The position numbers were made by a program, and so were the translations under genes. Below the pieces are notes generated by a model that did not search any database, was not told the origin of the DNA, and saw only the letters and a list, made by a program, of their open reading frames with translations. A stretch of 64,000 nt of DNA from Escherichia phage vB_EcoM_G8. Each line of letters begins with the position of its first letter. The first letter of the stretch is position 1. The DNA is taken from sequence record NC_054915.1. One strand, given 5' to 3'. Positions 63,144 to 64,000 of the stretch are shown here, piece after piece.

Positions 63144-63404
63144 TTAAGCTTTACTGCCAGAAATAATTCCGAAGTTGTTAAAATCATATCCAATATCGTC
63201 AACATCTACTTTAGGACTTGCTACAACATAAGCAATTTCACTACGTTTTGCACAGGTGTTGATTTCTTTACCATCGCCACCTAAGAAAGAATACCCATTA
63301 CGTTTTAATGAGCCAAAGTCTTCCGCATCACCAATGAAAGCTTTAACTTTAAATTTAGAACCTCTGGCATCTGCTTCAACGATAAATTCTTGATACATTT
63401 TCAT
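63144..63404 (-). CDS. internal protein with capsid targeting sequence
   Basis: 86-aa ORF starting MKMYQEFIVEA. Confidence 0.7.
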   Translation of the reverse strand: MKMYQEFIVEADARGSKFKVKAFIGDAEDFGSLKRNGYSFLGGDGKEINTCAKRSEIAYVVASPKVDVDDIGYDFNNFGIISGSKA

Positions 63405-63410
63405 TTTTCC

Positions 63411-63524
63411 TTAGTAAATTGATTTACCAAAGTATTTGTACCAAGTCGGACGTTGATCAATTTTTTCATCTAAGCGTGCTTGATTTATCGCAATGGACGC
63501 TTCGGACGGGTCATAATTTCCTCC
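63411..63524 (-). pseudogene. denV: 3' remnant of denV (endonuclease V / pyrimidine dimer glycosylase), last about 37 codons only
   Basis: frame reads ...[37 protein letters not shown] matching remembered T4 EndoV C-terminus ...[38 protein letters not shown]; upstream part replaced by promoter sequence. Confidence 0.6.
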
Positions 63525-63541
63525 AAGTAGTTGATGAATGT

Positions 63542-63571
63542 ATAGTATCAAAACCCTTGGAGGAAGTAAAC
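63542..63571 (-). promoter_or_regulatory. T4-type early promoter immediately upstream of denV remnant
   Basis: plus strand atagta-18nt-gtaaac. Confidence 0.6.
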
Positions 63572-63573
63572 AA

Positions 63574-63855
63574 CTATTTTTCTGAAGCGCCTGAAATATA
63601 TTTTTCAAGACGTTGTTTCATCAGTGAGCCGTTCTTAGCGATTTCTTCCGGTTTATCGCACATACGCAACAAGGCTTCAAGCTTAACGATATCACTGGTG
63701 CGCTCAAATTTGCGAGTATCTATCTTACTAGCAAGTTCAGAAATACGTGCTAATAGACTTTCAGCTTCAACCAAAGCTGCACCTAGCTTAGTTGCAAATG
63801 TGTCAGTAGCTTCGTTAAGAATAGATTCTGATAAAAATTCACTATATGTTTTCAT
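63574..63855 (-). CDS. internal protein with capsid targeting sequence
   Basis: 93-aa ORF from [11 protein letters not shown]; ATGA overlap with stop of gene e. Confidence 0.65.
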
Positions 63856-64000
63856 ATATACGCTTTCCAAGTTCCTGTTTTAAATGTTGAGATTACGCGT
63901 TTCGCGCGATTAGGTGTCTGACGATACCATTTAGATTGGGCTAGATTTACTGCTGCTTCATCCCAGCGTTTTTGTTGGAGCATACGTAAAGAATTAGTAA
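63852..64000 (-). CDS. e: lysozyme e, C-terminal 49 codons (gene continues beyond window end)
   Basis: translation ...[47 protein letters not shown] matches remembered T4 lysozyme C-terminus. Confidence 0.85.

Follow-up and report, generated by a model that had tools for sequence, protein, structure and literature searches.

What has become of denV, the gene for the pyrimidine-dimer DNA glycosylase endonuclease V, in Escherichia phage vB_EcoM_G8? The stretch of DNA analysed here, referred to as the window, comprises the first 64 kb of the ~168-kb genome of this T4-like phage (Tequatrovirus), beginning at rIIA, and nearly all of its genes lie on the minus strand. A first-pass annotation had described the segment from 63571 to 63411, which spans exactly from a -35 hexamer to a stop codon, as a mere 3' fragment of about 37 denV codons located behind an early promoter. 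Searching the window by tblastn with T4 DenV (138 aa) yielded one significant match (63539..63414, aa 96-137, 31 of 42 residues identical, E=3e-16), all remaining matches having E>3, and the intact 137-aa DenV homologue of phage Pu-Krd-SF4 retrieved the same sole match when used as query. The similarity to the C-terminus of DenV is thus real and significant, and neither query detected a second denV in the 64 kb.

The denV remnant and the 13-bp repeat at its junction

Megablast analysis of the locus revealed that relatives of the phage fall into two classes, that is those matching in one piece over 901 bp versus those matching in two pieces over a span of ~1210 bp that includes an annotated endonuclease V. 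Alignment to Lutter and Pu-Krd-SF4, which carry an intact denV of 414 bp, and to G4498, a member of the one-piece class, uncovered a clean gap of exactly 310 bp as compared to the intact alleles, with flanks that are 97-100% identical to the intact-denV relatives. The locus runs collinear to its intact counterparts in Lutter, Pu-Krd-SF4 and G2133, making it orthologous to denV by sequence as well as by position. What remains of the 3' part are codons 103-137 and the stop codon (63411..63518, minus strand), i.e. 35 codons by descent rather than the ~37 proposed. These C-terminal codons are indeed present, but they are not the only part of denV left. The native Shine-Dalgarno sequence GGAGG (63520..63524, minus strand), located 5 nt 5' of the ATG and identical to that of intact denV in Lutter, Pu-Krd-SF4, JK45 and G2133, the native ATG itself (63514-63512, minus strand), retained from the intact allele, and the codons for MTR survive too. 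Hence, rather than a bare 3' truncation, the lesion is an internal 310-bp deletion that kept the 5' signals of denV, its ATG and its first three codons.

Inspection of the intact alleles showed that the gap is bounded by a 13-bp direct repeat, present as AATTATGaCCCGT at the start codon and as AATTATGtCCCGT at codons 103-107, the two copies matching at 12 of 13 positions. In Pu-Krd-SF4, the copies AATTATGACCCGT and AATTATGTCCCGT begin at 1983 and 2293 (locus coordinates), their spacing of 310 bp being equal to the size of the deletion, and in the intact allele of G2133 they are likewise 310 bp apart (178 and 488, locus coordinates). As this latter allele also already carries the exchange Y132F that is found in the remnant, it looks like a progenitor-type allele. 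In the window, a single hybrid copy of the repeat, AATTATGACCCGT, marks the junction (63506..63518, minus strand), where intact alleles have the repeat twice. The repeat was identified by regular-expression matching and exhaustive comparison of 13-mers, as an automated repeat scan did not report it; it represents the sole pair of 13-mers matching at 12 or more positions in a 521-nt region, as compared to 0.13 pairs expected in shuffled sequences. Both endpoints of the gap therefore lie within a short repeat of the undeleted allele, of which one copy is left, the anatomy of a deletion mediated by direct repeats. Altogether, we regard it as very probable that the region is a denV pseudogene generated by one 310-bp deletion between the two copies of the 13-bp repeat. 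Judging from this anatomy, replication slippage or microhomology-mediated illegitimate recombination would be the likely mechanism, which would have removed codons 4 to about 103 while leaving one hybrid repeat. T4 denV differs in that it lacks the 13-bp repeat.

The size of the deletion also determines how the remaining codons can be read. Since 310 equals 3n+1, translation from the native ATG would produce MTRPKRPLR and stop after nine codons (63485..63514, minus strand, as deduced from translation and alignment to intact alleles). Codons 1-3 of this residual ORF are those of DenV itself, whereas past the junction it runs in the +1 frame as compared to the former gene, so that reading from the native ATG misses the frame of the C-terminal codons. 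The remnant has no start codon of its own: no in-frame ATG, GTG or TTG occurs downstream of the -10 element of the promoter, in accordance with the initial description. The last 35 codons are untranslatable, and the few extra codons that align 5' of the remnant are 5'-UTR whose likeness to denV is fortuitous. Two further possibilities were rejected, namely a read-through fusion with the upstream internal-protein (IP) ORF, which is in another frame and cut off by an intervening stop codon, and a frameshift that would lead from the 9-codon ORF to the frame of the remnant, for which there is no supporting signal.

Carriers of the junction and the origin of the deletion

To find further carriers, a 101-nt probe across the junction was used, scoring matches in one piece. 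The junction is present in 14 GenBank records corresponding to 13 phages, namely G4498, BF15, Phaginator, F27, 235Ecol030PP, JM17, FL18, vB_Eco-B1.1, JM10, FL12, FL23, FL44 and Shinka. In addition, eight contigs were retrieved by exact match to the protein of the adjacent ipIII gene, and all eight carry the junction; two of them are the BF15 and Phaginator genomes and six are ENA or Logan assemblies of metagenome or SRA data. Exact-pattern scans for the junction gave no matches in IMG/VR and none in JGI metagenome contigs. The best public matches to the window are 96-99% identical, with about 96-97% identity over 24 kb. Within the remnant, G4498, BF15, Phaginator, 235Ecol030PP and vB_Eco-B1.1 are 100% identical to the window, whereas the other carriers differ at one to four positions.

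Haplotypes were defined by the junction base and residues 114, 123 and 132, with F27 left out of this base-by-base comparison. Shinka has T/S/A/F. The haplotype A/S/A/F occurs in two versions: with 1 bp lost from an A7 run and a further change silent in the old frame in JM10 and FL23 (by alignment) as well as FL12 and FL44 (the same 96% match), and with one silent change from ATT to ATC in one ENA contig (L025). A/N/A/F is found in JM17 (by alignment) and FL18 (the same 99% match), and A/N/D/F in the window, G4498, BF15 and Phaginator (by alignment) as well as 235Ecol030PP and vB_Eco-B1.1 (100% match). Thus, the remnant in the window acquired S114N and A123D after the deletion, both of which alter the old protein, while Y132F was inherited from a G2133-type allele. 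The 1-bp deletion within the remnant of JM10 and FL23 shows that the former reading frame is no longer kept intact. These observations fit a remnant that would be drifting neutrally, two to four events being too small a number to show relaxed selection statistically.

Did the deletion occur once, or did the 13-bp repeat act as a recurrent hot spot, such that the carriers do not trace back to a single ancestral event? The latter scenario appears unlikely to us, although two observations speak for it. Most carriers have A as the junction base and Shinka has T (AATTATGTCCCGT), as expected of crossovers on either side of the mismatch between the repeat copies, and the substrate for repeated deletion is common, since intact alleles with the repeat pair include those of G2133, Pu-Krd-SF4 and Lutter. 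The A variant also occurs at the 3' repeat copy, as seen in JK45 and KAW3E185. However, the haplotypes are nested, and the series from T/S/A/F via A/S/A/F and A/N/A/F to A/N/D/F agrees with a single origin and subsequent stepwise, AT-biased substitution. Moreover, all carriers inspected base by base share Y132F, although this exchange discriminates only weakly between a single and a recurrent origin because the intact allele of G2133 has it as well. The T variant at the junction of Shinka in turn means that a single origin is not certain, as recurrent deletion or conversion of the site may explain it. A bolder version of the hot-spot idea holds that the 13-bp repeat spanning the start codon of denV repeatedly gives rise to this deletion in this Tequatrovirus lineage, that the A and T junctions arose independently and that loss of denV is favoured rather than neutral. 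This we consider improbable. If it were true, one possible reason would be that the deletion brings the early promoter 310 bp nearer to the downstream genes for injected internal proteins; another would be that DenV imposes a cost, or is a target, in hosts from gut or sewage, which are never exposed to UV.

The denV promoter and the coding potential of the locus

The first-pass annotation had placed the remnant behind an early promoter. Indeed, a T4-type early promoter is predicted directly upstream (63542..63571, minus strand), but it is not foreign to denV: it is the gene's own. It consists of the -35 hexamer GTTTAC (63571-63566) and the extended -10 element TGATACTAT (63550-63542), so that positions 63571-63542 read GTTTAC-N15-TGATACTAT. 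The hexamer, a spacing of ~17 bp, an extended -10 element of the form TGnTAnnnT and a position on the coding strand upstream of the gene agree with the features of T4-type early promoters. The identical promoter is present in the intact-denV relatives and is annotated as such in the Lutter record, and GTTTAC followed by TGATACTAT is also found upstream of T4 denV. Across the window, the combination of GTTTAC and TGnTAnnnT occurs 15 times on the minus (coding) strand and not once on the plus strand, as compared to 0.1 occurrences expected (strand and shuffle controls). The denV promoter escaped a generic sigma-70 scan, because it has only 8 of 12 matches to the motif used. The strand bias of the T4-type motif together with the precedent of T4 denV justifies the designation 'early-type promoter' as a prediction, and transcription would be expected to start near 63535. 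With the more permissive pattern GTTTAC-N17-19-TAnnnT, 20 sites are found on the minus strand (from 63571 to 2418) and one on the plus strand, about one being expected per strand; the 20 minus-strand sites provide a candidate early promoter map of the whole window.

What does this promoter serve once denV is lost? The first intact gene downstream encodes an 86-aa internal-protein-like product (MKMYQEFIVEA..., 63144..63404, minus strand), identified as an ORF and annotated as internal head protein in relatives, and no terminator-like site was detected on the minus strand between the denV promoter and this gene. The denV promoter is thus expected to remain active. Most likely, it now drives expression of this 86-aa IP gene, and continued transcription of the downstream internal-protein gene or genes may be the reason why it has stayed intact.

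The wider neighbourhood of the locus presents several features of its own. Upstream of the denV promoter lie the 3' end of the lysozyme gene e (...63852, minus strand) and, between e and the promoter, an internal-protein-like gene of 93-98 aa (63574..63870, minus strand); downstream of the 86-aa IP gene follow an ipIII orthologue (63082-62504, minus strand, 94% to T4) and, to the left of it, homologues of vs.8, vs.7 and vs.6, all on the minus strand. Three ORFs (63870-63574, 63404-63144 and 63082-62504) share a capsid-targeting-like start, MK(T/M)Y(S/Q)EF. The Lutter record splits the IP gene downstream of denV into two short, overlapping CDSs (L001:2413-2538 and 2513-2668), which may reflect a frameshift in that phage, while it is a single ORF in the window and in Pu-Krd-SF4. 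The vs.8 homologue (62449-61796, minus strand) is split: a 9-bp deletion relative to T4 generates an in-frame TAG after codon 33, resulting in ORFs 62449-62348 and 62338-61796, with the remainder being 95% identical to T4 vs.8. As the same split is annotated in G4498, the real protein may start at an internal ATG. A 120-aa ORF (61462-61100, minus strand) with the glycyl-radical motif RVSGY corresponds to T4 vs.6, a known gene annotated as autonomous glycyl radical cofactor GrcA, and Pfam Gly_radical matches its counterpart in relatives. Finally, the gene at the vs.4 position of relatives (L024:5486-5752 and equivalents) matches Pfam Acb2_Tad1_hairpin, a family of anti-CBASS/anti-Thoeris sponges; in the window, this position lies about 0.5 kb beyond vs.6.

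It might be argued that a small functional protein (46-65 aa) is still made from the remnant, initiated at an upstream TTG. A 65-aa ORF starting with TTG (63608-63411) is among the ORFs of the window, and PHANOTATE/RAST annotation calls a 46-aa 'endonuclease' in JM17 (PP400779), FL18 (PP400780) and vB_Eco-B1.1 (ON871820), e.g. at L022:520-660, with its TTG within the -10 element. However, the two TTG codons are located within the -10 element or 5' of it, and the transcript made from the promoter itself would consequently lack them. Neither is preceded by a Shine-Dalgarno sequence, the frame of the TTG ORF carries a frameshift in JM10, FL12, FL23 and FL44, and all changes in the lineage of the window since the deletion are nonsynonymous in this frame. 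Furthermore, the 65-aa ORF has no Pfam match and catalytic residues are absent. A functional small protein is thus very improbable, and the 46-aa 'endonuclease' is very likely a mis-annotated pseudogene.

The reading as a pseudogene agrees with what is known about the enzyme. Catalysis by T4 endonuclease V requires the alpha-amino group of Thr2 as nucleophile and Glu23, as established by enzyme biochemistry and the structures 2END and 1VAS. The intact homologue matches these two T4 structures at about 1e-80, and Pfam PF03013 (Pyr_excise) covers its residues 1-87 (E=2.9e-14), a part that is deleted in the window. An uninterrupted ORF of ~137-138 codons is lacking as a result of the 310-bp deletion and the disjoint frames. 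The codons for Thr2 and Arg3 persist only in the 9-codon residual ORF, and residues 4 to ~103, including Glu23, are absent. With Glu23 lost along with the entire fold from residue 4 to ~103, this locus cannot give rise to a glycosylase. Hence, the earlier statement that the N-terminal catalytic region is gone is borne out, and the proposed loss of activity is well supported: the catalytic domain is deleted, the C-terminal codons are off the native ATG frame and the 64 kb contain no other denV. The phage is accordingly predicted to make no pyrimidine-dimer DNA glycosylase, and its sensitivity to UV would be roughly that of a T4 denV mutant.

This prediction would fail if an intact copy resided elsewhere in the remaining ~100 kb of the genome. 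The window covers only 64 kb, and among 1117 phage records with matches to DenV, 1069 of which are full-length, there are four with two denV-like places. However, the identical junction is present in G4498, whose complete genome of 167.8 kb contains the denV remnant and no second denV, and in T4 and every relative inspected denV resides at this one locus. A functional copy elsewhere is therefore highly unlikely. The idea that the 310-bp gap is an artefact of assembly or sequencing, which nothing specific favours, is hardly conceivable given that the identical junction was recovered from 13 independently isolated and sequenced phages (Germany, Poland, USA, Denmark) and from six metagenome or SRA assemblies.

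Taken together, the locus is an ordinary pseudogene that involves no new biological mechanism; public genomes contain it without annotation or with a wrong one. Records that call the remnant an 'endonuclease' call for correction. UV sensitivity is predicted for the phage and at least 13 sequenced relatives, and as several of the carriers are candidate therapeutic or biocontrol phages, their stability under UV is of practical importance.

Natural denV deficiency in T-even phages

The closest counterparts of the locus are the intact alleles of G2133, Lutter, Pu-Krd-SF4 and JK45, which share its promoter and downstream IP gene, but have kept the 310 bp and encode the full 137-aa protein. The orthologue in T4 (PF03013; 2END, 1VAS) shares the type of promoter, the Shine-Dalgarno sequence, the ATG with the MTR codons and the C-terminal motif TWYKY(Y/F)GK, with 74% identity over the remnant. 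However, denV is intact in T4, whereas the gene in the window lacks codons 4 to ~103 and its frame is broken, so that no enzyme is possible. The order of genes differs as well, being e, IP, denV remnant, IP, ipIII, vs.8 in the window as compared to e, ipIII, ipII, denV, vs.8 in T4. The region from e to vs.8 is a highly plastic cassette locus, in which T2 has a single, different IP gene.

Loss of the activity had also been likened to the situation in T2-type phages. According to classical genetics, T2 and T6 are T-even phages that are naturally v-minus, a type that is about two-fold more sensitive to UV than T4 and that is rescued by the v+ allele. For T2, this natural v-minus status is said to go back to Streisinger in 1956 and Harm in 1963. 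When the whole T2 genome (AP018813, 163.8 kb) was searched, no match to DenV was obtained even at E<10. Homology between T2 and T4 ends at T4 position 64,938, directly beside denV (64,939-65,355), and resumes at 66,384; in T2, the denV-ipII-ipIII block is replaced by ~445 bp containing one gene for an unrelated, IP-like protein of 157 aa. In T6 (AP018814), in the 17 kb searched (55000-72000), the segment corresponding to T4 62,799-66,483 (3.7 kb, vs.3 through ipIII) is missing and e abuts regB. Most product names in both records are spurious. The genomes of T2 and T6 are consistent with the classical v-minus status of T2.

The parallel with T2 applies to the predicted phenotype, i.e. the lack of a phage-encoded pyrimidine-dimer glycosylase, but it does not extend to the lesion, given that T2 has no denV at all. 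Unlike the window, the loci of T2 and T6 have kept neither the promoter nor a remnant, and since their lesions thus differ from the one described here, the link to T2 is an analogy at the level of phenotype. Over its alignable part, the window is ~96% identical to T2 and to G4498 alike. This similar distance, along with a locus unlike that of T2, means that the phage is not specifically 'T2-type'. Natural denV deficiency in T-even phages has thus arisen through at least three lesions: T2 had a cassette replaced, T6 lost a large segment, and the phage described here lost 310 bp by a repeat-mediated deletion.
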